A DNA stretch of 63,771 bases, counting the filler, from Craspedostauros australis (Eukaryota): NCBI GenBank assembly GCA_030167865.1. It is 10 parts of 10 records of this genome, joined end to end, with 100 filler letters (N's around TTAATTAATTAA, not from the genome) between each part and the next. Parts side by side here need not be neighbours in the genome. Positions count along the whole stretch, not along the records: positions 1,924 to 14,231 come from JALAGF010002093.1; 9 more parts are not named here. One strand, 5' to 3'. The notes below the pieces were generated by a model. That model searched no databases. It was not told where the DNA came from and worked only from the letters and a program-made list of their open reading frames with translations. A program made the translations under genes and the position numbers. Below, one piece after another: positions 1,924 through 62,612 of this stretch (its first letter is position 1; every line of letters begins with the position of its first letter).

Positions 1924-2748
1924 ACGAATATGTGCTTGGTTAGTTTGTAGGAGAGAAAATTTCTGGAGGTCCATTTCAAAGTGCAGGTCGACTCACTGAT
2001 CGGGCTCGTATAGAATGGTCTGCACGACAACTCGATCGACGGAATTTTGTTGTGAACCAGATTATGATCGCACGCTCTGAATCCATTAAAGACACATGCT
2101 CTATTATTCGCCCTCGTGTTGTTTCAGCCACAAGCACTCCGCCTCGGTTGCGTTGTGACCGTACGGCGACAGAAACTTCGACCAATGCGATCCATAAAGC
2201 TCGTTGCGCTCGCCCTCAGCATCGTCGTGGATCGCCCACAGACAACTGCGAAAAAACTCAATCGGCGGCGTCTTTTGCGCTTAACGTCAATTGGCTGAGT
2301 CACGGAAGTTTTATATTTATTGTTGTTGGGAAAGCTTCAATAACAAATTCAGATGTCGCATTCAACACCAGGATAAGAACAGAGAGTCATAAGTGCATAA
2401 ATGCGTGTCCATCTATTGCCAATAGGTCATTTATAGTTGCCACCGGTTAATTGTGCTCAACCAGAAAAGATTTGCCACTGGGCGCGTTACTGACGAAGAA
2501 TCGCATAGGAAGGCAACCTGGTGTGCGAAGTGATAGCAACAGCAACAGCAACAGCAACAGGAACAGCAGCCACGCCAAAACCAAGACAAGGGGACGTCGA
2601 GCCAAAAGATGAAGAGCAGCAAGGATTTGCAGAACTGAGGATGAACTCACAGTCCACGCAAATACAAAGCAAGAACAAACCTCACAACACCACCAGCAAT
2701 ACCACCAGCAACACCACCAGCAACCCAATCAGCAACCCAATCAGCAAC

Positions 2749-3820
2749 ATGCATCGCGGCAACCCCAACAACCTCAACAACGGCAACAACCAAGGAGGTA
2801 AGAGCACAGCGAGCCTGCCATATCTGTTTGCCAAGGAGATACAACAGTCAGACGAGAGGGAGCAAGAATGCGCATACATGGTTCGACTGCGGTTTTCAAA
2901 CAGATCTAATACCGCAACAACTGCACTCTTGCTCAACAATTTTGATTCTCTCCTTTTCTTGCTCCCTGCGCGCTGATTCATTTGCATCCATATGACCATG
3001 CAACAGCACCCCCACCAGGAGGTCTGCCACTGCCTCCACCCCATGGCGCGCCAGCAGCACCAGTAGCACCAGTAGCAGCACAGCCACAAGCAGTAGCCAA
3101 CCAGAACCAAGGAGCCGTCGACCGTTTCGCCCGTCACCAGGATGAAAATGGCGACATCTCACAAGCGGAGGTTGACGAGGCATTGATCGCCGACGCCAAC
3201 GGTGAGTATCGACGCTTGTATTAAATTGTACCTACGAGAGTGTACGTGAAGAACGAAGATTGGAGCGCATCACGCAAGTCTTCCTTGTGTTGTTCCTCTC
3301 ATCTTTCTCTCGCCGTTCTCTCATTTCCATGCTTCCTTTCCATTGCAACCATACTTTCACACAACCCTCTCTGCCATCGATGGCTCGTCGCTTGCTCTCG
3401 CTGCCTGTAAGGAGGATTCTTCTACTCCTGAGGAAACTTCCTGTGCTGTTGTTGTCGCTCGATTTTGAATGTGTTGATACCACAGGCTCGTCATCGTGGA
3501 CGACTCTCCACAATGTGTCCGAAGAAGATCGCTGCAGGACTTTTCAGAGATCCGATCAGCGTTGGCAAGGATGGGAACGACGCATTGGCAGCCTCACCTG
3601 GACTTGCCGGGACCTGGCGCCACGCCCAATTGGAGATTTTGACAGACAGCAACGACGGCTTGCCAAAGAAGATCGAGTGCTCCGGCAGGACGACCGACGG
3701 AGCCACTGCAATTGGCACATGGTGTATGTGCCGTATTGCTTTTTCGGATTCTGCTCAAAAGCAGCTGGACCAGACAGTTGCGATAGCGGCAGCAGTTGCA
3801 GGTGGCTCTACGTTAGTTAA
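2749..3820 (+). CDS. Possible multi-exon hypothetical protein with Asn/Pro/Ala-rich N-terminus
   Basis: ATG at 2749. A GTAAGA...CAACAG intron at 2798-3006 joins MHRGNPNN...QGG in frame to APPPGGLPLPPPHG...DANG. A second donor GTGAGT lies at 3202. The 3' exons and stop are uncertain. Confidence 0.35.
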
Positions 3821-4895
3821 TTTGACGATGCAGTTGCACAATTATCATACATGTCACACAGTGCTTGCACTCACCAAGACGTTTTATTGCACGAGTAGTA
3901 TACTCTGCATGATGCAAGCAGCACCACTTCTATCAGGTGAATGTAAATCAAATCGTCTCTGGATGGATTTGTGAGTTGAGAGTTGAGAGTTGCAAATCCA
4001 TGCGCGCATAATGGTAGATTACTTGACTACGACTACGGTATGACGAAGTTGCCGTGGTAGCCAGGCTCCGCGTCGCAGTTCAGCTTGTGCTTCCATAGTC
4101 GCACCTCATCTTGCGCTGCCATAGTGCCCTTCGTGGCCTGGATGCGAAGATTTGGTGGTGCAAAAACCAACTCCGACACAGACGTTGGGTTCAGGAAGCG
4201 AGGCCAGAGGCGTATGCAACGATGACGACATCACAGGAGCGAAATCAGCAAGCGCAGCCACAGCAAGAGCGTTAGGATACCGTCGGAGGGACACCAAAGT
4301 TGTCGCTGACACACGAGTGCGACTATGCTCTTATGCTTGCGATCCATCTTGCACGCATTTTGTTGCTCCGTGAGAAGCTCTCCTGTCGCAGTTCTCCTGT
4401 CGCAGTTCTCGAGCAGACAGAGCGACCGAAATACCCCTGAGAAATCGTCCTTTGAGAAACGTCATTCTTCGTCAGCAAGTATGCGCAAGTAAGAAGGTAA
4501 GAAGGTACTATGCAGGCGCATAAGTCTCCGAGGCCACCCTGGACGAGTGAGAAGCCTCTCTGTACCCATGTTTGTCGATTTTGCATCACATCTGCACGGA
4601 GGCCTCCGCATCTCTTGCCCTTCTCGATTGATGGCGCGAGTGTGACCATGCGTTTTGGAATCGAATGTGTCAAGCAAGCTTTGCGGGCAACGAAATGGTT
4701 ACTGCGAAAAAACCAAATTGCCGCTGACCCCAATATCTTGTTGAAGATCTTCCAAGACACACAACAACCACCCATCAATCCAAACCCATCAACGCAACCC
4801 GTGAGGAAGGAAGCCGCAGTTGGCGACAGCCCTAATAATTCGAGTGGGACGGTCCATAGCTCGTACTCCTCTGCTGTTATATTATTCTATTCGCG

Positions 4896-6008
4896 ATGAG
4901 AACGAGGACGATGGCTTTGCCATATGCGATGTGCTGGATAGCCAGAAGGACCGCAGGATTCTCTAGCACACAGCCATCATGCAGATTGTCGCATCGACTG
5001 GCATCCCATGGGATGACCACCAGATATTCGACACCATCGCTGCGCAAGACACGTACGAGGCTGTGGCAGTCCACGACCGTGCGAGAAGCGCTGCAATCGT
5101 CGATGGAAATCTTGCAGACACGCGATGTCCCGGAGCCGACGGAATCGGCCATCCATATCCTCTCCAAGGTGCTGCAATTGGATTGGGAGACGGGATGGAG
5201 ACAGCTGTTGCAGATCTCCCAACAATCACCGTTGCATGCAACGCAGGGACTGGCCGATCAATGCATGACCGACGCGCAGATTGCGCAATTCGATGCGCTG
5301 CTGCGGCGGCGCTACGAACATCACGAACCGATTCAGTACATCGTGGGACAATGGGATTTCTTGGATCACACCTTCGAGATCCGACCGCCGCTGTTGTGCC
5401 CGCGACCCGAAACGGAGGAGCTCGTGCTGCATGCGCTGCGTGATGTGCAAGCGCCTGCCAAAATCCTGGATGTCGGTTGCGGCACGGGATGCATCGGGAT
5501 TTCGATCGCGGCCCAGTTGGACGATTGCACGGTCGTCGCCATCGATCCCGAAGGCGTGGCCATTGCGACGTCCAACGCCAACGCGCAACGCATTCTGGGG
5601 GATGCGCAGTCGTATCGCACCGTGCAATGTGCGGCCGCGGAATTGGACGGCGATGACGTGCCGTTCGATATGGTGGTCAGCAATCCACCCTACATCCCGA
5701 CCAAGGACATGGCGACGCTGGAGAGCACGGTCGTGGCGCACGAAAGTCCATCCGCGTTGTGCGGCGGCGCGGATGGTTTGGATGTTGTTCGGGATATCGT
5801 GGCGCAGTTGCCCAGATGGTGTCGCACGGGTGCCATCTGTTGGATGGAGGTGGATCCCACGCATCCAAGCATGATCGAGGAATGGTTGTCTGCACCATCG
5901 TCAGCGTCATCGTCATCGTCGGCGGGTGATGTGGTATGGGAAGAGTCCGTCCAAGACATGTTCGGGCTGGATCGATTTGTCAAGTTGCGGGTTGTGAATG
6001 GGCGGTGA
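4896..6008 (+). CDS. prmC: HemK/PrmC peptide-chain release factor N5-glutamine methyltransferase, probably organelle-targeted
   Basis: EPIQYIVG, LCPRPETEELV, SAM motif ILDVGCGTGCI, VSNPPY and ALCGGADGLD. The N-terminal extension is Arg/Ser/Thr-rich. Confidence 0.93.
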   Translation: MRTRTMALPYAMCWIARRTAGFSSTQPSCRLSHRLASHGMTTRYSTPSLRKTRTRLWQSTTVREALQSSMEILQTRDVPEPTESAIHILSKVLQLDWETGWRQLLQISQQSPLHATQGLADQCMTDAQIAQFDALLRRRYEHHEPIQYIVGQWDFLDHTFEIRPPLLCPRPETEELVLHALRDVQAPAKILDVGCGTGCIGISIAAQLDDCTVVAIDPEGVAIATSNANAQRILGDAQSYRTVQCAAAELDGDDVPFDMVVSNPPYIPTKDMATLESTVVAHESPSALCGGADGLDVVRDIVAQLPRWCRTGAICWMEVDPTHPSMIEEWLSAPSSASSSSSAGDVVWEESVQDMFGLDRFVKLRVVNGR

Positions 6009-6427
6009 TGACAAAAAGTACCATTGCGCTCACGCTTCTGCTCTCTCCAATCAGCAGATGATGCAGTGGAGTGATGGTGGAGCTCGCACGCTATTATTCC
6101 AAAGATCACGGATACTCGTGCTGGTAGACTGCAAAACCCTATCACTCTATTCATAATTGTAGCGCTACCTACCTGCAAGTACTTGCCTACCTACCTGATC
6201 ATTGAACTTGTGTTCCTCTACCTAATTGTACGAAGGCTGAGCTTTCTCCCCAATTCTTGTGTTTTCACGGGTGGAGGTGCGTGCGTAGAATTCTGGACAC
6301 GCAATAACCTCAGCGACTGCAGCACCGTCATGTTCGTTTTTGTTTCCATTTCGCACATACCATACATCCAATTCGATCCATTCCTAATCCTACTTCTACT
6401 CTTGTTGCTGTCGCTGTTGCCGCTTGA

Positions 6428-8914
6428 TTACGAGATGACCTCAACCTCCTTTGGCTTGTCGTCGTCGTCATCGTTGTCGGAAGCAGGCTTCTTCTTGGGC
6501 TCCTCCTCCTCCTCCTTCGCCGCAACGATTTCGGCTTCTGGCACGGCTTCGTCGGCATTGTTCGACATGAGCCCCATGACACGCTGCGCGAAGCTCTTCA
6601 TGTTGGAGACCTCGTATCCCGAAGTCATACCCGCCACGTCGTACAGGAGCATGGCGAAATCCTGCGTGGCCGGACTCTCCTTGTCGGCCTTGATCATGGC
6701 ATCCAAATCGCGAATGATGGGATGGTTGGCATTGATCTCCATCACGGCCTTGGTCAGTTTGCCCATGGGTAGGTCGTTGTCGCCGGACGCCACGGCCTGC
6801 GCGCGCATGTACCGTTGCATGGTGGGGCTCATACCGAACGCGCCCTGCACCAAGGCAGCGGGCGAATCCGTCAGGTCCGTCGACACGGTGACCTTCTGGA
6901 CCTTGTCGGACAGAAGAGTTTCGAGGAATTCGATGACGCTGATGAATTCGCGGTTGAGATCCTCCTTCTGCTTCTTGGCCTCGTCACCCTCCTCCTCGTC
7001 GACCTTGAGATTCTCCTTGGCGGCATCGACCACGTCGATGTCCTTGAAGTTGCGCAGCGATTCAAACATGATTTCGTCGAGCGGTTCGGTCGCGAAGAGG
7101 ACTTCGAATCCACGCGACGTGAGCTTCTCCACGACGGGGGACATGGCGGCGCCATCGCGGCCCTCGCCGGTGACGAAGTAGATCTGCTTCTGATTTTCGG
7201 GCATGTTCTCGACGTACTTGTCGAGGCTGGTGTACTCCTCGCCGGACTTGGAGCTGTAGAATCGCAGCAGAGGAGCAATGTCGTCGCGGTGCTTGTCGCC
7301 CTCGACGATGCCGACCTTCATGTACTTGCCGAAGTTGTTCCAGAAGAGGACGTACTGGGCGCCGTCGTCGTCGGCCTCGGCAATGTCGCGGATCATGTCG
7401 AGGGACTTGCGCACGAGGCGCTTGTTGATGATGCTGAGGACCTTGGACTTTTGGAGGATCTCACGCGAGACGTTGAGCGGGAGGTCGTTGGAGTCGACGA
7501 CTCCGCGCACGAACTTGAGCCATCGCGGCATGAGGTCTTCGAACTGGTCGTTGATGAAGACGCGCTTGACGTAGAGGCGAATGTTGCGCGAATTTTCATC
7601 GAACATGTCCTTGGACAGCTCGAAGGGGAGCGAGCCTGGGATGTAGAGGATGGACTTGCATTCTACCTGTCCCTCGAGGACGAAGTGGGTGTGCTTCAAG
7701 GGGTCGTCGAAGGAATTCTTGAAGGCGGATTTGTAGAAGTTCTTGTACTCGTCCTCCGTGACTTCGCGTGGGGATCGCAGCCAGATCGGCTTTTGCGTGT
7801 TGACGCGCTCGAAGGCCTCGGTGGTTTCCGGGACGGTCTTCATCTTTGGCTCCTCGCCTTCGGCAAGGTCCTTGTTGGCCTCCTCGTCTGGAACCTTCTT
7901 GTACTCCGTGGTCTCCTTCCAGACGGAGATGGGGAATTCGATGAATTCTGAATATCGCTGCAGCAGCGTCTCGATCTCGTTGGTGTCCACGTACTCGGCG
8001 GCGTCGTCGCGCATGTGCAGAACGAGCTTGGTCCCGCTGTTGCTCTCGATGATGTCGTCGCCCTCAATCTCCTCGATGGTGTAGGACGACTCCGCCTCGG
8101 AGATCCAACGGTAGGTCTTGGCCCCGTCCTGCATGGACTTGGTGATGACCTCGACCTTGTCGGCCACGAGGTATGCCGAGTAGAATCCCACGCCGAACTG
8201 TCCAATGAGGTTGACGTCGGCCGTGCCGTCGCCAAGGGCCTCGGCGAAGGCGCGCGTTCCGGATTGCGCAATCTTTCCCAGGTTGTTCATGAGCTCGTCC
8301 TTCGTCATGCCGACGCCACTGTCCTCGATGGTGATCGTGTTGTCCTCCGCGTTGGTCTTGATCTTGATTTCCGGCGGCGCGGCCGCGGCCTCGTCGGTGA
8401 TGGAGAGGAAGCGCTTCTTGTCGCAGGCATCGGCGGCGTTGGAGATGAGCTCGCGCAGGAAGATGTCGCGGTCGGAGTAGAGGGAGTTGATGATGAGGTC
8501 CATGACTCGGCCGACGTCGCTCTGCGGGGTTGTAGAATGCAATTCAATACAACAGAGCACGTGTTGTTGAAATCAAGTATGGTAGAATATTATATAATAT
8601 TTGGAGAAAACAGAACGGAATGGAATGCAATGGAAACGCATGGAAATGTTAGATACGATAGTGAAGCACACAGATGTGAACAATCGTCAACACTCTCGAG
8701 CAGCACCAATCGCATGACGATACGAAACCCAACGCACCGTGAATTCGTACTTCTCTGGCGCCGCAGTGGCATCGAGGGAGACGAGGGAATGCCTCTCAGC
8801 ATGCTGCAGATTGGGCTGAAAGGCGACCGAGCCGGTGCGCGATCGGAAGGCGGGTGCGAAGGCAGCAGTGGTGGCCGCCGTGGCCAAGACGAGCGCTGCG
8901 GATGTGAACTTCAT
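6428..8914 (-). CDS. HSP90: Plastid-targeted HSP90 (HSP90C-like); exons 8914-8738 and 8521-6428
   Basis: NSLYSDRDIFLRELISNAADA, IGQFGVGFYS, GVVDSNDLPLNVSRE and MEINANHPII. A phase-0 GT-AG intron at 8737-8522 gives KYEFT/SDVGRVMD. The N-terminus MKFTSAALVLATAATTAA-FAP is a signal peptide plus ASAFAP-type transit motif. There is no MEEVD or KDEL at the C-terminus. Confidence 0.95.
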
Positions 8915-9536
8915 GGTCGTGCAAGGGCAGTTATGAGTTGCGATTGGATTTTATGAAGCACTCTGGATTGATTGGTTTGTTTCGTTGGTTGTGAACTGGT
9001 CCGAAGCCTTTTTGTTTGTCTCGTCAACACTTCGTCGTGTGGATTTTCGTCGGTTGTTTGATTGCTTGATTGATGGCTGGCTGCCGATGCATCTGGGTTT
9101 GGTGATGTGCGGCGAAAGAAAGTCTTCGGAAAAGATCCAACAAGGATTGGGAAAGATGCCTTCCACGTGTAACTGTTCTTTGCTGACGTCATCTCAGGTG
9201 GTTGACTCAACGGAACGATGCAAAGAAGCGAATCGAAATTCGTGTTGTTTTGTTGTGGCGGTTGCTGTGTTGTTTTGTTGTTTTGTTGTGACGAGAGGCT
9301 CTTTTCTGTGTTTCATGGAGAACGTGCAGAGCGATCAGCCATGTCTCTCTGCTGCAATTGCTCATACTTCTTTGTTCCCAACTGTCTTCTGATCCCATCT
9401 GACCACCAATACGCATTATCATACGACCTCCGTTTGGAAAGAAGTCAAACAAAGAGACTGCCTTCATCACATTCAACACAGACTCGTATCAGAGTGAGCA
9501 ACCGACACAACACACTCCATATAGAAGAGCTCGAAG

Positions 9537-10343
9537 ATGACAACAGGCATGACTCGTATTTCGTTGGCAGCATCGAAGCCTGCAGCTCTGGGACAACGAT
9601 TGGGTGCTGTTCTGTGCTCTCGTCCTGCATCCTTGTCACCATTGACAAGCATCAGAGCAGCAGCAGCACGAACAACAACAACAACAGCCATGCCAATCAG
9701 GCAGCAGCACACGGCATCCACCATCCAACAACCATGGAGGATCACCGCCAATCAGGCAATTCAATCAAGGCGCCATCCCCTCGCATTCACACGCAGATCC
9801 ATGGTGCAGATCACGCAAACGAAGGTCTCTCAGTTGTCGCCAGATGCTTCTATCGCCAGCGAACCAACTGTGACGAACACTAGCAGCAACATCAATGACA
9901 GCGCTGACAACAACAACAACAACAACAACACTACGACCGAATTCCTGCAACAGTACGAACTAGTATCGCAGGAGATACTGACGGTCACGGAAAGTTGCTT
10001 GAAACAGATCGAGGTCTTGATTCAGAAACAGCCACAAACGGGCCACTACTTGCGCGTCTACGTCGACGCCGGCGGCTGCTCCGGCTTCGAATACAAATTC
10101 GAATTGTGCCACGACGACCTCGAGGACGACGACATCGTCGTGGCCACAAAACGAGATGGTGCCACGCGGCTCGTCGTCGATGAGACCTCCCTCAACTTCC
10201 TGCGCGGCAGCACCATCGATTACGTGCGCGAGATGATCCGCTCCAGCTTCGTCGTGTCGCATAATCCACAATCGGAATCGGCCTGCGGATGCGGCTCGTC
10301 GTTCGCCGTCAAGAACTTTGGCTCCAATCCGGCTTTGGATTGA
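9537..10343 (+). CDS. IscA/ErpA-type (HesB family) Fe-S cluster assembly protein, ISCA2-like, with long presequence
   Basis: LRVYVDAGGCSGFEY, LVVDETSLNFLRGSTIDY and NPQSESACGCGSSF, which contain the three conserved cysteines. Confidence 0.92.
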   Translation: MTTGMTRISLAASKPAALGQRLGAVLCSRPASLSPLTSIRAAAARTTTTTAMPIRQQHTASTIQQPWRITANQAIQSRRHPLAFTRRSMVQITQTKVSQLSPDASIASEPTVTNTSSNINDSADNNNNNNNTTTEFLQQYELVSQEILTVTESCLKQIEVLIQKQPQTGHYLRVYVDAGGCSGFEYKFELCHDDLEDDDIVVATKRDGATRLVVDETSLNFLRGSTIDYVREMIRSSFVVSHNPQSESACGCGSSFAVKNFGSNPALD

Positions 10344-10390
10344 AGCGGTTTACGTTTATAATACTATTGCGTCCCGCAGTCTTTCGTAGT

Positions 10391-10834
10391 CTAACATTGT
10401 TTCGCAGCACGATTCTTGGACGCCGTCAGCAGTTGCTCTTGCGCGCGTTCCATCTCTTCGAGTTCTGATTTGGAAGGCTTTCGCTTCGAGCGTTTGGAGG
10501 GTTTCTGAGATGATGATGATGATTTGCGTTTGGCAATCGTCGTAGTTGTCTCAACCGCGGCCTGATGAGCTTGCTGAAATAAAGATTGAAAGTCCGGCAA
10601 CGACGCGAAGGCTTTGTGCAGATCTTCAATCGAAATTGCCCGGTTGGTATCTTCCTCATCGCAGTACGTGACCAACCGCTTGGCGACGATCTGCAAGAAC
10701 GAGAGATGCAGTATGCGCAAGGTTTGGACGGAGGCGTCCGTGAAGGCCACGTCCTCCGAACACTTCTGCAACGATTCCCAAAACACCGGCGCGTTGATGC
10801 AAAAGTGTGTTGGCGGTGATCGTTTGGCGGACAT
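10391..10834 (-). CDS. Divergent histone-fold protein, NC2-beta/Dr1-like
   Basis: From ATG 10834 (MSAKRSPP). The stretch DVAFTDASVQTL...FLQIVA...CDEEDTNRAISIEDLHKAF resembles the NC2b/NF-YB fold. A basic linker precedes ELEEMERAQEQLLTASK, resembling the Dr1 C-terminal helix. Recognised by eye only. Confidence 0.55.
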   Translation of the reverse strand: MSAKRSPPTHFCINAPVFWESLQKCSEDVAFTDASVQTLRILHLSFLQIVAKRLVTYCDEEDTNRAISIEDLHKAFASLPDFQSLFQQAHQAAVETTTTIAKRKSSSSSQKPSKRSKRKPSKSELEEMERAQEQLLTASKNRAAKQC

Positions 10835-10974
10835 GGTTTGTGTTTGGCGCTGTGGGATGGAGAGTGGTGTGGCGATAGCGCTTGTTCGGGTCTGTGCTGT
10901 GCTCTCTTGTTGTGCTTGGATTTGTGGCAGCAAAACGAGAACAACGAGCAAATCGCCACAACATGCAGCTGCGC

Positions 10975-10984
10975 AAAACAAAAA
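10975..10984 (-). terminator. Pol III oligo-dT terminator of the permuted tRNA
   Basis: TTTTTGTTTT on the minus strand begins after a 4-nt gap (cttc) following tRNA position 37. Confidence 0.6.
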
Positions 10985-10988
10985 GAAG

Positions 10989-11065
10989 TCGTAGTCAGAC
11001 GCCTTGCCGTTGGGCCAACAGGTCTCCAGAAACCTGCCCGGGATTCGAACCCGGAATCTTCTGAT
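10989..11065 (-). tRNA. Circularly permuted tRNA-Arg(ACG): 3' half 11065-11030, 5-nt spacer, 5' half 11024-10989
   Basis: Minus strand reads ATCAGA AGATT CCGGG TTCGAAT CCCGG GCAGGTT T ctgga GACCTGT TG GCCC AACGGCA AGGC G TCTGA CT ACG A. Swapping the halves gives a full cloverleaf: 7-bp acceptor stem (two G-U pairs), perfect T and anticodon stems, and anticodon ACG at 10992-10990. Confidence 0.88.
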
Positions 11066-11219
11066 GTCAAGTTCTGCCAACATTGCATCAATCAATGTTT
11101 CTAATCTCTTGCCAAATATGTCCATAATTTCATTTGGTTGAATGTGTTGACGCCTGCAGTGGAAACATGGCAACGAGGTAACCACAGAATGTAAAGAACA
11201 TCGAGCAGACGACGAGTAC

Positions 11220-12569
11220 CTACATACGCAAGGATTCACCCTTCTTCAGCGTCTCCAGGAACATGGCCTCCATCCGCGATGCCAACGACTTGGCTTCCAG
11301 CATGCCCACATGCACGCAGGCCACATTGGACCAGTACCGATGCCGATAGTGCTTCTGCCAGCAGCCCGTGATCCTCCAGATATTCCCATTCGTCCCGGGC
11401 CAGTAGCACACGTAGCCGTGTCCTTGCAACATATCGATCGCGTCCCGCAACCTCTGCGTCTTCCATTTACCTTTCCAATTGTACTCAAATTCCAGGTACT
11501 GCACCTGCTGCTGTGCCAGCAATTTCTGTCCACCCAACAGCACATCCAGATCGTATCCTTCCACGTCGATGCTGAGGAAATCGATCGTGCTGCTGGCGTC
11601 GCCGGTCATATACGACAGCGTTCCGACGTAGTCATCCAAAGTGTAGACCGGTATTTCGCTGCACAGTTTCACATCCTTGCCGTTTGCGTGAAGCTGCTGC
11701 TGCCGACGGCAATGATGCTCGAAATCCTTCAATCCACCCGATTCCGCACCCAGCAAGAACCGATCCGAGACCTGCATCGTGCCGCGATCCATGGCAAACG
11801 CTGCCTGCTCCAATATGAAGTCGTTGTTCCACTGCAGATGCAGCTTGGAACGGTACAGTTTCTCGAACGTCGCCGACACGGGCTCAAAACAGTACACGGT
11901 GGCTGGTCGGACCGACGTCGCCTGCACGTCGACTTGCGCCTTGTCGAACTGCGCGCAACTGCTGCCGGCAAAGCCCGATGCGTTATGTTGTTGCGCCGTT
12001 TGCGATTCCGACGATAACAGCGCGGATTTCCACACGTCGACATCGTACTTGGCATTCTGGCTGCCCATGCGCAATGCATTGACGGCATCGATGCCTTTGT
12101 TGCATCCGACAAAGAAGCTGACAAAGTGATCGTGCGATGCCGTCGTCGAGTACTCGGGTTGCAGCCACCGCATCGAATCGGGACAGCTCGTGGCACGCGA
12201 GAAGGAGCAGTTGCTGGTCCAGGGGAACTTCTTGTGCTTCTTGCAGTCCAATTCGGGCAGTTGCACGGAGAGGATCTCCATCTGTTCGGCTGTGCAATTG
12301 GGATGATGCGTCGCGATTTCCAGTTGTGGGTCCAGTCTTCGATTGATGGTGCTGGCGGATGCCGCTGTCAACGCATTCTGCGGATGTGTCTTTGGCAATG
12401 AATGGAAGGATCCATCCCTCTTCATCATGCCTATTGCGGACGGCTGTGATTGCAACACGGATGCGTGTTTGTTCAGGTGATGGGAAAGGAAGATCGGGCT
12501 CAACGTGACGAACGCAATGGCCATCACGAGCAGCACCCGCACGGGCCGGATCGTCCTGGTCCTCCTCAT
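11220..12569 (-). CDS. FkbM-family SAM-dependent methyltransferase with N-terminal membrane anchor
   Basis: FFVGCNKG, VYCFEPV, TLDDYV, IDFLSIDVEGYD and YLEFEY, plus a hydrophobic N-terminal segment. Confidence 0.88.
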   Translation of the reverse strand: MRRTRTIRPVRVLLVMAIAFVTLSPIFLSHHLNKHASVLQSQPSAIGMMKRDGSFHSLPKTHPQNALTAASASTINRRLDPQLEIATHHPNCTAEQMEILSVQLPELDCKKHKKFPWTSNCSFSRATSCPDSMRWLQPEYSTTASHDHFVSFFVGCNKGIDAVNALRMGSQNAKYDVDVWKSALLSSESQTAQQHNASGFAGSSCAQFDKAQVDVQATSVRPATVYCFEPVSATFEKLYRSKLHLQWNNDFILEQAAFAMDRGTMQVSDRFLLGAESGGLKDFEHHCRRQQQLHANGKDVKLCSEIPVYTLDDYVGTLSYMTGDASSTIDFLSIDVEGYDLDVLLGGQKLLAQQQVQYLEFEYNWKGKWKTQRLRDAIDMLQGHGYVCYWPGTNGNIWRITGCWQKHYRHRYWSNVACVHVGMLEAKSLASRMEAMFLETLKKGESLRM

Positions 12570-13052
12570 TCTCTAGAGATGCCGTTCGTCTTGTTGTCAA
12601 TGGTGTGTGTGCAGATATATATGGTTGGAGCTTGGGACAATGATGATGAAGTTGGCAGAGTGCTATCACCGACATCTCGTGAGTCGCCTCCCATCATCTG
12701 TTTCTGTGATTCGGCAGATACGCGCAAAAGATGATTGTTGGCATCGTGGAATTCGTTCGTGACTGGTTGTTGTTCCCGAATCACTCGCAAAACCGCCAAA
12801 CCAATCACCAACGTCACCCTTTCATCGTTCCTCCCAACTTCATTCATGTTCCACTAGCTACCGACGAGTTCCCGAAGATGCCTGTCAAGTAAAGAGGTGC
12901 TTCTAATGTTACATTATAGAATTGCTCCACGCTTCGCTTGCGACCACGTGTTGTCTCGGTTGTTGAATTGTCGACGCTCCTTTCTTCAGAGCGTAGTGGA
13001 ATGCCGTCTCCACTTCACTCCACTCCGGACAGTCGTATGCGCCTGCCTACTC

Positions 13053-13667
13053 CTATTTATGGTACTGGTAAGTGGAGGTGCTCTCGCCGTTGCCACCGAT
13101 GCCGTTGCGGGCCGCCTCCCGGTTCTTCTGCTCCAAGTACAGAACGCGAGACATCATGGGCAACAACCCGATGCTGGCACTGGTACCAACAAACAGGAAC
13201 CAGGCGACGATGTTCATGTCGAGCTCGCGCGCCTTGGGAAGGATGAAGACCCACGAGACACACAGGCAGTACAGCAGATCGTACCAGATCTGGTGTCCCA
13301 CGAAGTTGCTCGTGTGCTCCGAAAAGAACGTCGCGACGCCCTCCTGCATCACGGCGTACACGGTGAAGCCGAGGAAGAAGACGAAGACCCCGAACGGGAG
13401 TTGCCATGGCAGGTTGTACGGATCGGAAACACCGAACGTGGTGTGCGCCATGAAGACGAACGCAAAGGCTGATGTTACGGAATAAGTGGTGAGGGCATAG
13501 CGCATCGATGGAAGTTGAAACAGTGAAGCAGAAAAAGTGGTGGCAGAGTGAGTGAATTGAATTGATGCGGAGAGAGTCTTTGTTGATGTTGCTGAGAACA
13601 AGCCGTGTGATCCGAATGAGCACTCACCGTACATAACGAGAGGCATAACTTGGAGGTAGTCTGTCAT
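13053..13667 (-). CDS. Small multipass membrane protein; probable intron 13627-13469
   Basis: About four hydrophobic segments with coding-like codon usage. A GTGAGT donor and ACATCAG acceptor join in frame as MTDYLQVMPLVMY-AFAFVF. Confidence 0.65.
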   Translation of the reverse strand: MTDYLQVMPLVMYGECSFGSHGLFSATSTKTLSASIQFTHSATTFSASLFQLPSMRYALTTYSVTSAFAFVFMAHTTFGVSDPYNLPWQLPFGVFVFFLGFTVYAVMQEGVATFFSEHTSNFVGHQIWYDLLYCLCVSWVFILPKARELDMNIVAWFLFVGTSASIGLLPMMSRVLYLEQKNREAARNGIGGNGESTSTYQYHK

Positions 13668-15713
13668 GGTTGTCGTTGTTGTTGCTGATGCTGTTGGCTT
13701 GATGTCGATCTTGACCTTGATTTCGTTTTATGAGCTTGAGTTGTGTGTGAGGATTGTGATGTTTGGGATCAATTTGTGAGGATGCTTCCTGTTGCTTTTG
13801 TTGTTGCGGTTCGTTCGTGTTTCTGGAGAAGGTACGGTAAATTACGGAATCAAGCGTTTGTATTCTTATTGCTATCGCTGTGAGTTACAAACACTATTTA
13901 TGTATCTGCCTTGACTCCCTGGATGCGCCCCCAACTTTGGGAGCCCCTCGAGGGAGTCCACCCGCACTTTGAAATGGACCTCCTAACTTACAATCTCGGA
14001 TATCCGTAAGGAATTTTTTGTGTGGGCGTTTTCGTATATGACCCACGTCAGCCAATGACCGTACGACCACGGCAGGATTTTGAAAAAATGGGCTCCTATG
14101 GAGACTAAAATTTAACCATGTATAATTTAACACATTGGTAATAAGGGAAAGGTGCTAGACAGTGAGTCCGGGCATTGGTTATAAAGTTATGAGGTGGTGA
14201 AAATGGCCAAGCTATCTCTAATAGGGCCTTTNNNNNNNNNNNNNNNNNNNNNNNNNNNNNNNNNNNNNNNNNNNNTTAATTAATTAANNNNNNNNNNNNN
14301 NNNNNNNNNNNNNNNNNNNNNNNNNNNNNNNAAGGACGCCTACTGACGTCGACAGGATGTCATCGTGTCACCACGTCGACATCTGTCTCCGAGTCAGAGC
14401 AGGAGGCGAAGATCCAATGACCGAAGGGCATCAGCATCATGGATACAGAAGGTGAACTTCAAATGGTGAGTACTCATGGAGTAGGAGCCAGTACTGAATG
14501 AACGGAGTGTCGAATACGGAATACGTATTGAACATGGAGTATCGTGCGCGACAAGCACACGATGTTGAGAGAGAGAGAGAATACAGAGAGAAGCGAGAGA
14601 GCATCTCGCGTACCAACTCATAGTCGGAGACCGAATCTACGAAACAGATTGAAGCACCAAGAGCATCGGGCAAGAGAACGGCGTACACCGAGAGCATCGG
14701 AGTAGCCAACTAATGAAATAGCAAACAGAAGACTATCAGCCAACACCATCTTCCACGATCATAGGTTACCGTGCGCGGAACTTGCCAACATCTGACACGG
14801 TTGTCTCCCATCAACTCCATTCATTACAATCATATCGAATGCTGATCAGAGCATCAGCCTGGGCGCCTTGCTGCCGCAACTGTTGGTCCTCCTGGATGTT
14901 GATGCCTCATTGTCTTGTCCCGCTGTACATCATAGGTATGCTCATGGTGTGAAGGGATGCGGTACGAGGAAGATGGTGAACAGATGTGGGTTCTTCCTCG
15001 GCTGTTCCATCATGGCGCTGCCGATGTCGCCTCTCATTTCTGACCATTGTGGTCGGTGGCCATCGTCGAACGGGGTTGCGCAACAACAGACAGGTGACCG
15101 TGTTTCTCTGCGAGTGTGTTTGTGTGTGTCATCATCACTCACAAACCCATTCCACAACCGTGGCAAATTGAAGTGCGTCACCCAAACACGATCAGCCACG
15201 GATGACAGGCAGACGATTGAAGCATGCCAACAATTCTTGACATCACCAAAACAACGAACTGTTGATGTTGTGGCAACACAGAACAACTGCTCAACGACTA
15301 TGGTACTACATGTCCTCGTTCTGTGCAAGAGATCATGGTTGTACTCGCGTACGACTACATGCATTGATGGAGGTGTCAGCCAATGTGTCATAGTCGTACG
15401 CATACATGACCAGTAAAGCAATGCATGGGTGAAACAAGCAGCCACGCACAACGTCGCATGCCGAAAATGATGGATGAAGGCGACCATGGCAAGAGATGAA
15501 GATGATGTTGATGATGATGACGAATGGGAAGTGGCGATGAGGAGCGATCGCAAACGTATCGCATCGATCGGCGACATCAGAAAGGAAGGTATCAAGGCAA
15601 TTGCATAGGTAAACAATCACATGAACAATCGCAGCACCAACAACAGTGCCAACAACAGTGGTGAGAGACGCCATGGTTCCGTGATAAGCCCAGGATTCAA
15701 GTGATCAGCAGCA

Positions 15714-35147: not shown

Positions 35148-35562
35148 NNNNNNNNNNNNNNNNNNNNNNNNNNNNNNNNNNNNNNNNNNNNTTAATTAAT
35201 TAANNNNNNNNNNNNNNNNNNNNNNNNNNNNNNNNNNNNNNNNNNNNTGTTTTGTTCAGACCTTTTCTTGTTGATTGTTGCAGCTGCTGCATCCGTTCTT
35301 TCATCTTTGTCTTCGTCATTGCTGTTATCATCCTTGTCTCACTCTATGTTCGTAAACAATTCGGTGGACTCCGTCCTCGTGACTCGGGGAGGATGTCCAT
35401 CATGGCCGCTGTGGTATTCCCTGNNNNNNNNNNNNNNNNNNNNNNNNNNNNNNNNNNNNNNNNNNNNNNNNNNNNNNNNNNNNNNNNNNNNNNNNNNNNN
35501 NNNNNNNNNNNNNNNNNNNNNNNNNNNNNNNNNNNNNNNNNNNNNNNNNNNNNNNNNNNNNN

Positions 35563-43559: not shown

Positions 43560-44400
43560 CCTCGGATTCCATTGCTCGAGTTGAAGCAGGTTGGATACAC
43601 GTGTCAAGACTACGGCAGTGGTGCAGTAGTCATCAGCATGGAGAGAATCGAGGTATGTTGTAGTAAGAGGATCTGAGGAGCATATAGTTCCCAAGGTGAG
43701 GTGTGAGTCAGGTTGGTCATGCTTGAGTCATGATGGATTCGTGAATGGAGGAGAGAAAGGAGGAGAAAAGATTTGGTGGTCAATCAAGTCGAAAGATTTC
43801 ACGCCAAAACATATCAGCACAAAATCGAATAGTGCTAAGTTCGTTACTCCCGTAGCCCCCACTATCTATAAATTTCACTTGTGTTCGGTTCAGCAATCGC
43901 ATCGCCTGTAGCTCAACGGTAGAGCACCAGTAATTCTAACTGAGGTTCCGGGTTCGAATCCTGGCATGGTACTTTGCTTTTGCTCACCCCTTGTGATTTT
44001 TCGATAGTGCTCTAATAAAACAAGAATTTCTCCCATCGGGTTGATACCGTGTCCGGTAGTAGTCTGTCCCTTATTGAATCTCAATTCATCTTGATTGAGG
44101 TTGTAATTGAGAACATAGGTTGTCAAGCAATTGGAATTGCAGTTGGATTCCCTGCTTGTGTTGAAGCAGGGCGGATCTCCTTGTTGTTGTCGTGTGGAGT
44201 TGATTGTTGGCATGGCTGACAATGGAATCGAGATTGGCTGTAACACAAAGATTCAGAGGAGCATATAGTTCCTGGAGTGCGTTGAGTCCAGCGAATCAAT
44301 TGGTTTTGATTCAGCAATGATTCGTGAATGAAAGTGGGAGGAAAGGAGAAAGGAGGATTTTGCCGTATTCGTAGGCAGAAGGTTTCGCGCCAAAAGAACG
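43560..44400. repeat. Pair of diverged direct repeats (about 43560-43820 and 44145-44400)
   Basis: Shared blocks in the same order: GGATTCC..GCT...GTTGAAGCAGG, GAGGAGCATATAGTTCC, GATTCGTGAATG and TTTC.CGCCAAAA. Confidence 0.7.
43902..43971 (+). pseudogene. tRNA-like sequence (pseudo-tRNA or SINE head)
   Basis: A box TAGCTCAACGG and B box GGTTCGAATCC, with intact D and T arms. The acceptor stem pairs poorly and the anticodon loop AATTCTA is non-canonical (no U33). Confidence 0.7.
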
Positions 44401-62512: not shown

Positions 62513-62612
62513 NNNNNNNNNNNNNNNNNNNNNNNNNNNNNNNNNNNNNNNNNNNNTTAATTAATTAANNNNNNNNNNNNNNNNNNNNNNNNNNNNNNNN
62601 NNNNNNNNNNNN

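Follow-up and report, generated by a model that had tools for sequence, protein, structure and literature searches.

Circularly permuted transfer RNA (tRNA) genes, in which the tRNA's 3′ half is encoded ahead of its 5′ half, have been known since 2007. The permuted genes of Cyanidioschyzon merolae were reportedly described by Soma et al. in Science in 2007, and those of Thermofilum pendens are said to have been described by Chan, Cozen and Lowe in 2011. Here, we analyzed a 63,771-nucleotide (nt) stretch of DNA from Craspedostauros australis (GenBank assembly GCA_030167865.1), composed of 10 joined parts and hereafter called the window, for which an earlier reading of the sequence, the original prediction, had proposed a permuted tRNA-Arg(ACG) gene on the minus strand. 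The locus lies in the part derived from JALAGF010002093.1, which covers positions 1924 to 14231 and is free of N. Our sequence comparisons make it highly probable that a functional nuclear gene for a cytosolic tRNA-Arg(ACG) lies here in circularly permuted form, of type II (junction 37/38), and that it belongs to a family conserved across diatoms. The proposal of a functional permuted gene is supported by 32 further copies, by covariation, by enriched signals of the RNA polymerase III type in the flanks and by diatom genes in the neighborhood.

A review tabulates 34 permuted genes, hosted by C. merolae, two Ostreococcus, two Micromonas, the nucleomorph of Bigelowiella natans and T. pendens, with intervening sequences of 1 to 74 bp (5 bp for the nucleomorph of B. 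natans), and this table contains neither an Arg(ACG) gene nor a stramenopile host (PMC3978253, Table 1). The accessible text of a 2026 review names red algae, Ostreococcus tauri, B. natans and archaea only (PMC13578239), and a 2025 preprint adds permuted tRNA genes of Auxenochlorella (bioRxiv 10.1101/2025.02.07.637104). The original prediction had known of no stramenopile example, and the literature searched, with supplements outside its reach, yielded none either. While the kind of gene is known, its lineage, its isoacceptor and its family-wide conservation appear to be new.

The permuted genes of the Mamiellophyceae (Ostreococcus and Micromonas) and of the B. natans nucleomorph resemble the window locus in that the 3′ half comes first, the halves join at 37/38, only a few nucleotides intervene (5 bp in B. 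natans), no intron is present, the upstream region is AT rich, the junction motif would be relaxed, and the cut sites fall where the eukaryotic endonuclease cuts canonical introns (PMC3978253). They differ in that the window locus belongs to the nuclear genome of a diatom rather than to a green alga or a nucleomorph of green origin, and in the isoacceptor, since Arg(ACG) is outside the 34 tabulated genes (PMC3978253). Moreover, diatoms seem to have kept one permuted isoacceptor across many lineages, whereas the review describes the permuted tRNA species as not conserved among organisms (PMC3978253). C. merolae shares with the diatom family an upstream TATA-like box, which 20 of 30 diatom contexts carry, a downstream T-stretch, an intervening sequence devoid of signals and an unencoded CCA, and, being the only system in which the circular intermediate was shown experimentally, it serves here as the model for the mechanism (PMC3978253). 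However, the 11 permuted genes of C. merolae fall into four junction types and come with extra introns and strict bulge-helix-bulge motifs at ectopic sites (PMC3978253), in contrast to the one isoacceptor, the exclusive 37/38 junction and the putative, exclusively relaxed motif of the diatom family. The permuted tRNA-iMet and tRNA-Tyr genes of T. pendens are likewise similar in their permuted order, their spacer of 1 to 7 bp and their upstream promoter, but they belong to an archaeal host, have their junction at 59/60 in the T loop and carry an additional intron at 37/38 (PMC3978253). Finally, the trebouxiophyte Auxenochlorella carries permuted genes in a green algal host, unlike a diatom, and these came to light because the tRNAscan-SE set was incomplete (bioRxiv 10.1101/2025.02.07.637104); the same route would have missed the diatom Arg(ACG) gene.

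When we re-read the window, the coordinates and the minus strand given for the gene proved exact, and the acceptor, anticodon and T stems proposed to pair across the permutation were correct. In the direction of transcription, a 3′ half of 36 nt is followed by a spacer of 5 nt and a 5′ half of 36 nt, and the locus comprises the following features:

11114 to 11130, minus strand: AT-rich stretch upstream of the gene, with AAATTAT at −65 to −59 and ATATTT at −54 to −49; a possible weak TATA-like promoter element
11066 to 11085, minus strand: precursor leader, ending in ...CTTGAC, which a cut between the leader and A38 would remove
11065 to 11030, minus strand: 3′ half, positions 38 to 73 (A38 to T73), 36 nt
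11029 to 11025, minus strand: spacer CTGGA between position 73 and position 1, 5 nt
11024 to 10989, minus strand: 5′ half, positions 1 to 37 (G1 to A37), 36 nt
10988 to 10985, minus strand: trailer CTTC, read from the sequence
10984 to 10980, minus strand: run of five T residues (T5), 4 nt after A37; likely the RNA polymerase III terminator

The 3′ half contains the 3′ strands of the anticodon and acceptor stems, the variable loop, the T arm with its TTCGAAT loop and the discriminator T73, and CCA is not encoded. The 5′ half supplies the 5′ strands of the acceptor and anticodon stems, U8, the D arm with G18, G19 and C20, and the anticodon loop residues C32, U33, A34, C35, G36 and A37. All seven pairs of the acceptor stem form (GACCTGT/GCAGGTT, five Watson-Crick and two G-U pairs), as do all five Watson-Crick pairs of both the anticodon stem (TCTGA/TCAGA) and the T stem (CCGGG/CCCGG), and the D stem has three pairs and a C13-A22 mismatch. 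The conserved tRNA positions U8, A14, G18G19, U33, T54-T55-C56 and A58 and the A15:U48 pair are all present in the window copy. The spacer CTGGA holds neither a promoter-like nor a terminator signal.

Left in its natural order, the 63.8-kb window yielded no tRNA with ARAGORN, nor did positions 9001 to 13000 when introns were allowed, and at gathering score Rfam returned nothing at the permuted locus, its sole match in the window being an unrelated tRNA-like element at 43.9 kb. An ordinary contiguous tRNA gene, or one interrupted at 37/38, finds no support at this locus, where neither ARAGORN nor the Rfam tRNA model (RF00005) gave a match. Once the two halves were swapped in silico, ARAGORN called tRNA-Arg(acg). 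An order-specific pattern, consisting of the start of the 3′ half, 48 to 78 nt and the end of the 5′ half, matched the window once and matched none of 100 dinucleotide shuffles. In a generic scan for permuted tRNAs, in which each 140-nt segment was doubled end to end before it was passed to ARAGORN, junction-spanning tRNAs were confined to the Arg(ACG) locus across the whole window. The statement that no second 5′ or 3′ half is present nearby thus held with ARAGORN, Rfam and the doubled 140-nt segments alike. The doubled-segment scan found no other permuted tRNA in the window or at the metagenome loci on 29 contigs described below; other anticodon labels that it produced map to the same Arg loci and reflect differing placement of the intron.

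The rotated order of tRNA-like arms also occurs in the tRNA-like domain of the YrlA model (Rfam RF02553), whose best weak match fell on positions 10975 to 11077 with 20.5 bits and an E value of 0.083. This could suggest a nondecoding tRNA-like RNA, either a YrlA-type mimic resembling Y RNA or the head of a tRNA-derived repeat, that never serves as a tRNA precursor. However, the model has a gathering score of 69 bits, which this match misses by a wide margin, and we rejected the YrlA or Y RNA-like identity on this ground. Furthermore, the ends of the element together re-form an anticodon stem that is perfectly paired and a loop of 7 nt containing U33 and ACG, the pattern of this arm is found in all 33 copies (although it was preset by the search), and the element occurs once in 64 kb and shares with its relatives the tRNA part only. 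We therefore consider a nondecoding RNA very unlikely.

The permuted order was not confined to C. australis. In one scan of the metagenome contigs of the Joint Genome Institute (JGI) with the order-specific pattern, which fixes the ends of the anticodon arm in permuted order, we found 32 further permuted copies on 29 contigs, and diatom-type genes adjoin the two loci tested for their neighbors. All metagenome matches share the layout of 3′ half, spacer and 5′ half, and once swapped, all 33 copies, including that of the window, became tRNA-Arg(acg) according to ARAGORN. The family comprises 27 distinct spacer sequences of 4 to 20 nt and 14 distinct mature sequences; the mature sequence of the window differs from that of one metagenome copy, L008, at position 37 only. 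The loci, with a GC content of 30 to 49%, resemble the window over the element alone (76 to 111 nt), and their flanks are unrelated except among duplicate contigs (L002, L016 and L028; L003 and L009; L020 and L025). There was no synteny between the window and the 29 loci, and protein matches between them were translations of the tRNA itself. A pattern for the 5′ half that was independent of the order gave no match in genome contigs and none in viral contigs. In most of the family, the spacers are 5 to 6 nt long and unstructured; the 20-nt spacers of L003:1501-1591, of L026 and of the duplicate L009 hold the palindromes AGTGATATCACT and GTGAATTCAC, which would lengthen the acceptor helix into a hairpin.

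We also asked what the unswapped sources, the window and the 29 contigs, look like to a tRNA finder that allows introns. ARAGORN then reported no tRNA in 26 of the 30. The calls in L017 and L027 stem from tandem pairs of whole permuted units, and the inner halves of L017 are readable as tRNA-Arg(acg) with a 100-nt intron; the call in L015 joins halves from two units 445 nt apart, and that in L012, with a 1143-nt intron, is spurious. Complete permuted units thus stand in tandem at 445 nt in L015, 100 nt in L017 and 51 nt in L027. An AT-rich box lies upstream of all tandem units except the second units of L017 and L027, and a T-run follows every unit. Tandem units whose inner halves can be read as a long-intron gene correspond to the intermediate that the duplication model of origin predicts. 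In L004, a second permuted Arg(ACG) unit (L004:147-229) lies about 130 nt from the intact copy (L004:358-432); its leader is similar, but a 13-nt deletion has taken out most of the T arm, which makes it a decayed duplicate and indicates that whole permuted units duplicate and die.

Tandem pairs of this kind, together with the fact that tandem duplication is the published model for the origin of permuted genes (PMC3978253), lend some color to the notion that the window locus is merely the middle of tandem ordinary tRNA-Arg genes with introns, whose outer halves are present or were lost in a collapsed assembly. Yet no further half was found anywhere in the window, no N lies within 3 kb, and the single-unit layout recurs on independently assembled contigs, most of which, as shown above, contain no tRNA even with introns allowed. 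The T-run of each unit would also halt RNA polymerase III inside the supposed intron, and because such a run comes directly after the 5′ half of the first unit in L017 and L027, a single intron-containing gene is unlikely even there. A collapsed tandem of ordinary genes is accordingly a very improbable account of the window locus, and a permuted gene remains the better one.

To examine whether the family conserves the structure of a tRNA, we tested covariation in 29 distinct aligned sequences at the 15 pairs that make up the T, acceptor and D stems, of which only C49 had been preset by the search pattern. All 435 of 435 cells formed standard pairs. Four pairs (50-64, 3-70, 2-71 and 12-23) were changed on both sides, in 19 cells, and the covariation score of 0.227 was reached by none of 500 shuffles (0.105 in the shuffles). 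When the partners were slid by 1 to 3 columns as a control, pairing fell to 30 to 58%. Two of the four compensated pairs are in the acceptor stem, which cannot form unless the RNA folds back over the spacer. A covariance model built from 28 metagenome sequences, with the window left out, matched the window over its full length with 104.2 bits and a rough E value of 1.7 × 10−32.

The flanks were compared in 30 contexts, a few of which nearly duplicate one another. In 29 of these, four or more consecutive T residues begin no more than 30 nt beyond position 37, compared with 18% of control positions, and the contig of the remaining context ends 4 nt after that position. A TATA-like motif starting at −60 to −25, most often at about −41, is present in 20 of 30 contexts versus 10% of controls. 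Ordinary tRNA genes of Phaeodactylum tricornutum are AT rich between −30 and −40 and have T-stretches downstream (PMC3531208), and given this match, the permuted units resemble ordinary diatom tRNA transcription units.

The leader may carry a further signal. It has a G at −3 in 19 and at −4 in 11 of the 30 contexts and never at −2. In the window, this G at −3 (position 11068) can pair with C32, leaving a 3-nt loop of A-C/A38 at the junction, or alternatively UUG at −5 to −3 can pair with C35-G36-A37. Across the family, the leader pairs with loop positions 32 to 35 at three or more of the four positions in 20 of 30 contexts (14% of controls) and at all four in 11 of 30 (1.2% of controls), which resembles the pairing between anticodon and intron in canonical eukaryotic introns. 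The strict register, in which the 3-nt bulge consists of −2, −1 and 38, differs from the register that gives perfect helices. Folding energies held no signal, and for this reason we dropped them as evidence and relied on motif counts against controls. Taken together, the counts are suggestive of a junction motif for the splicing endonuclease in the family.

The genomic surroundings speak for a diatom. The permuted gene sits between two convergent open reading frames (ORFs):

11220 to 12569, minus strand: ORF with an FkbM-type methyltransferase domain, flanking the permuted gene
9537 to 10343, plus strand: ORF with an IscA-type Fe-S domain, flanking the permuted gene

On the same gap-free stretch, 2.4 kb from the permuted gene, an uninterrupted ORF encodes 710 amino acids of an HSP90-family protein. 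Every named best match of this ORF is a diatom, at 72 to 76% identity, and includes Nitzschia inconspicua, a Bacillariaceae metagenome-assembled genome, Phaeodactylum, Cylindrotheca, Seminavis and Fistulifera, so that the window can be taken as diatom nuclear DNA; its host is probably a raphid pennate diatom at some distance from all named genomes, as judged from these matches. For taxonomic placement by neighboring ORFs, two metagenome loci, L018 and L027, were picked from the most divergent sequence groups. Next to L018, a CRAL-TRIO protein has named matches in diatoms only, the best one being a Chaetoceros-type transcriptome (52%), followed by Attheya, Odontella and Trieres, and next to L027, a Tic110 ORF shows 76 to 77% identity to N. 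inconspicua and Cylindrotheca, which are Bacillariaceae types. By their neighbors, the window, L018 and L027 would together span raphid pennate and polar-centric (Chaetoceros-like) diatom types. Position 20 points in the same direction, as C20 or U20 is a published peculiarity of nuclear diatom tRNA-Arg (PMC8975779), and in agreement with this rule every permuted copy has C or U there, C in the case of the window.

These data bear on a concern already present in the original prediction, namely that the contig might stem from contaminating red or green algae; such an origin, or a chimera, would make it uninformative about stramenopiles. We found no point in favor of either, the neighboring genes being diatom-like in the window and beside two relatives, and with the C at position 20 being that of nuclear diatom tRNA-Arg, such a source is so improbable as to be almost negligible.

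Two further observations concern the vicinity of the gene. An open frame of 282 amino acids (window 10391 to 11239, minus strand) runs through the tRNA element on the same strand and matches nothing in Pfam; although it probably exists by chance, the tRNA could be masked if gene-calling software annotated this frame. In one sequencing run (X1, the kind of which is a guess), a contig spans positions 9400 to 10852; the tRNA is outside this contig, which therefore has no bearing on its expression.

A tRNA of this kind would be in heavy demand. Eukaryotes read the codons CGT, CGC and CGA by tRNA-Arg(ICG), which is made from an ACG gene (PMC8007984), and these three codons account for 135 of 236 Arg codons in the seven Pfam-supported ORFs of the window and for 29 of 30 in the HSP90-family ORF. 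In a tRNAscan-SE survey of annotated RNAs, ACG and GCG both figure among the anticodons that P. tricornutum lacks (PMC7678280, Table 2), which fits a hidden gene. Collectively, these data raise the possibility that diatoms, pennate and centric alike, encode their sole cytosolic tRNA-Arg(ICG) exclusively as a permuted gene, a proposition to which we give even chances. The same survey table also counts GCA (all of Cys), UCU, UGG, UAA and UAU among the absent P. tricornutum anticodons (PMC7678280, Table 2). Mamiellophyceae have permuted genes for Cys(GCA), Leu(UAA) and Arg(UCU) (PMC3978253, Table 1), and more diatom tRNA genes may be hidden in the same way, for example Cys(GCA) in Phaeodactylum.

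Several points weigh against the view that the window holds a functional member of a diatom-wide family that may be the only source of its tRNA. The search pattern itself fixed the anticodon arm and C49 and held the spacer under about 25 nt, so that the anticodon arm, C49 and the spacer length carry no independent weight. Near-duplicate contexts are present among the 30 (L003/L009, L001/L005 and L023/L024), and related sequences inflate shuffle tests. Taxonomic placement covers only two of the 29 metagenome contigs. As for the sole-gene proposition, the count of Arg(ACG) genes in the host is limited to the window, and an ordinary copy elsewhere is conceivable; the P. tricornutum list was drawn from annotated RNA files (41 tRNAs with 38 anticodons), names many further anticodons as missing and may be incomplete (PMC7678280). 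At the junction, a strict bulge-helix-bulge is not formed, the perfect 4-bp helix of 11 contexts would come with a bulge of 4 nt rather than 3, and in the strict register the window forms two of the four pairs of the central helix. The window copy has no TATA-like match at −60 to −25, only the ATATTT at −54 to −49. Folding of the leader and trailer of the window was no more stable than that of shuffles (z of 0.05), mini-substrates of leader, anticodon arm and trailer had a family-wide mean z of −0.22, with 6 of 30 below −1, and whole precursors likewise folded no more stably than shuffles (z of −0.44 and −0.38).

In several of these respects the window copy ranks among the weaker members of the family: it keeps T5 and the G at −3 but has a poorer helix and no TATA-like match. 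This invites the question of whether it is a silent or decaying relic, with another locus, permuted or ordinary, supplying tRNA-Arg(ICG). The box that 20 of the 30 contexts possess is missing here, its leader pairs at two of four positions, and decay is known in the family from the second copy in L004 with its 13-nt deletion in the T arm. Nevertheless, all conserved tRNA positions are intact in the window copy and every stem pairs, the D stem with its C13-A22 mismatch aside. It reaches 104 bits over the full length of the family model, retains the T5 terminator and the G at −3, and equals L008 in its mature sequence save for position 37. On balance, we hold a relic to be unlikely, although less so than the other alternatives, and favor a functional permuted gene.

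Elsewhere in the window, positions 43902 to 43981 (plus strand) hold the tRNA-like element mentioned above, which matches the Rfam tRNA model with 32 bits over model positions 6 to 65 only and for which ARAGORN makes no call. It may be transcribed, given a TATAAA at 43867 to 43872, about 35 nt upstream, and a TTTT at 43978 to 43981, and it may represent a tRNA of unusual build, a pseudogene or some element derived from a tRNA. Pairs of 44-N blocks with 12 bases between them occur at ten places in the window (for example, 1824 to 1923, 14232 to 14331, 35148 to 35247 and 62513 to 62612).

Because the same layout recurs in many environmental diatom sequences, diatoms very probably cut, circularize and re-open this RNA. 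We infer every RNA step of the pathway from C. merolae. RNA polymerase III would transcribe the leader, positions 38 to 73, the 5-nt spacer, positions 1 to 37 and the trailer and would stop at the T5 run. The body of this precursor would fold into a cloverleaf, with a loop made of the spacer capping the acceptor stem, while its ends would pair via the anticodon stem and so present the leader/38 and 37/trailer sites to the splicing endonuclease like an intron at 37/38. Upon cleavage at both sites by the splicing endonuclease, tRNA ligase would join A37 to A38 into a circle, from which RNase P and tRNase Z would excise the spacer at the acceptor end. After the addition of CCA and the deamination of A34 to inosine, the tRNA would read CGU, CGC and CGA. 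The enzymes needed appear to exist in diatoms, since P. tricornutum tRNA genes for eight amino acids have introns (PMC3531208) and homologues of Trl1-type ligases occur in diatoms (PMC4090602). With an intact mature domain and a junction at the canonical position 37/38, the precursor could be cut by a conventional eukaryotic endonuclease of the ruler type without a strict bulge-helix-bulge. Under the sole-gene proposition, the diatom permuted gene would probably have an origin of its own, in the duplication of a gene with an intron.

To date, permuted tRNA genes are on record from a few red and green microalgae, one nucleomorph and a single archaeon, and the reviews consulted treat them as patchy curiosities. 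If our reading is true, their range widens to a major, ecologically dominant group of the stramenopile-alveolate-Rhizaria (SAR) clade, and the permuted layout would be stable over long times for one heavily used isoacceptor. It would also explain the gap in the Phaeodactylum annotation, which lacks a decoder of CGU and CGC, a gap that touches work on codon usage and expression design. The circular pre-tRNA pathway would become testable in the genetically tractable Phaeodactylum and Thalassiosira. Should the permuted gene indeed be the sole source of cytosolic tRNA-Arg(ICG), the whole diatom lineage would depend on a circular pre-tRNA pathway, and diatoms would supply the first nuclear example of this kind from outside the red and green algae.

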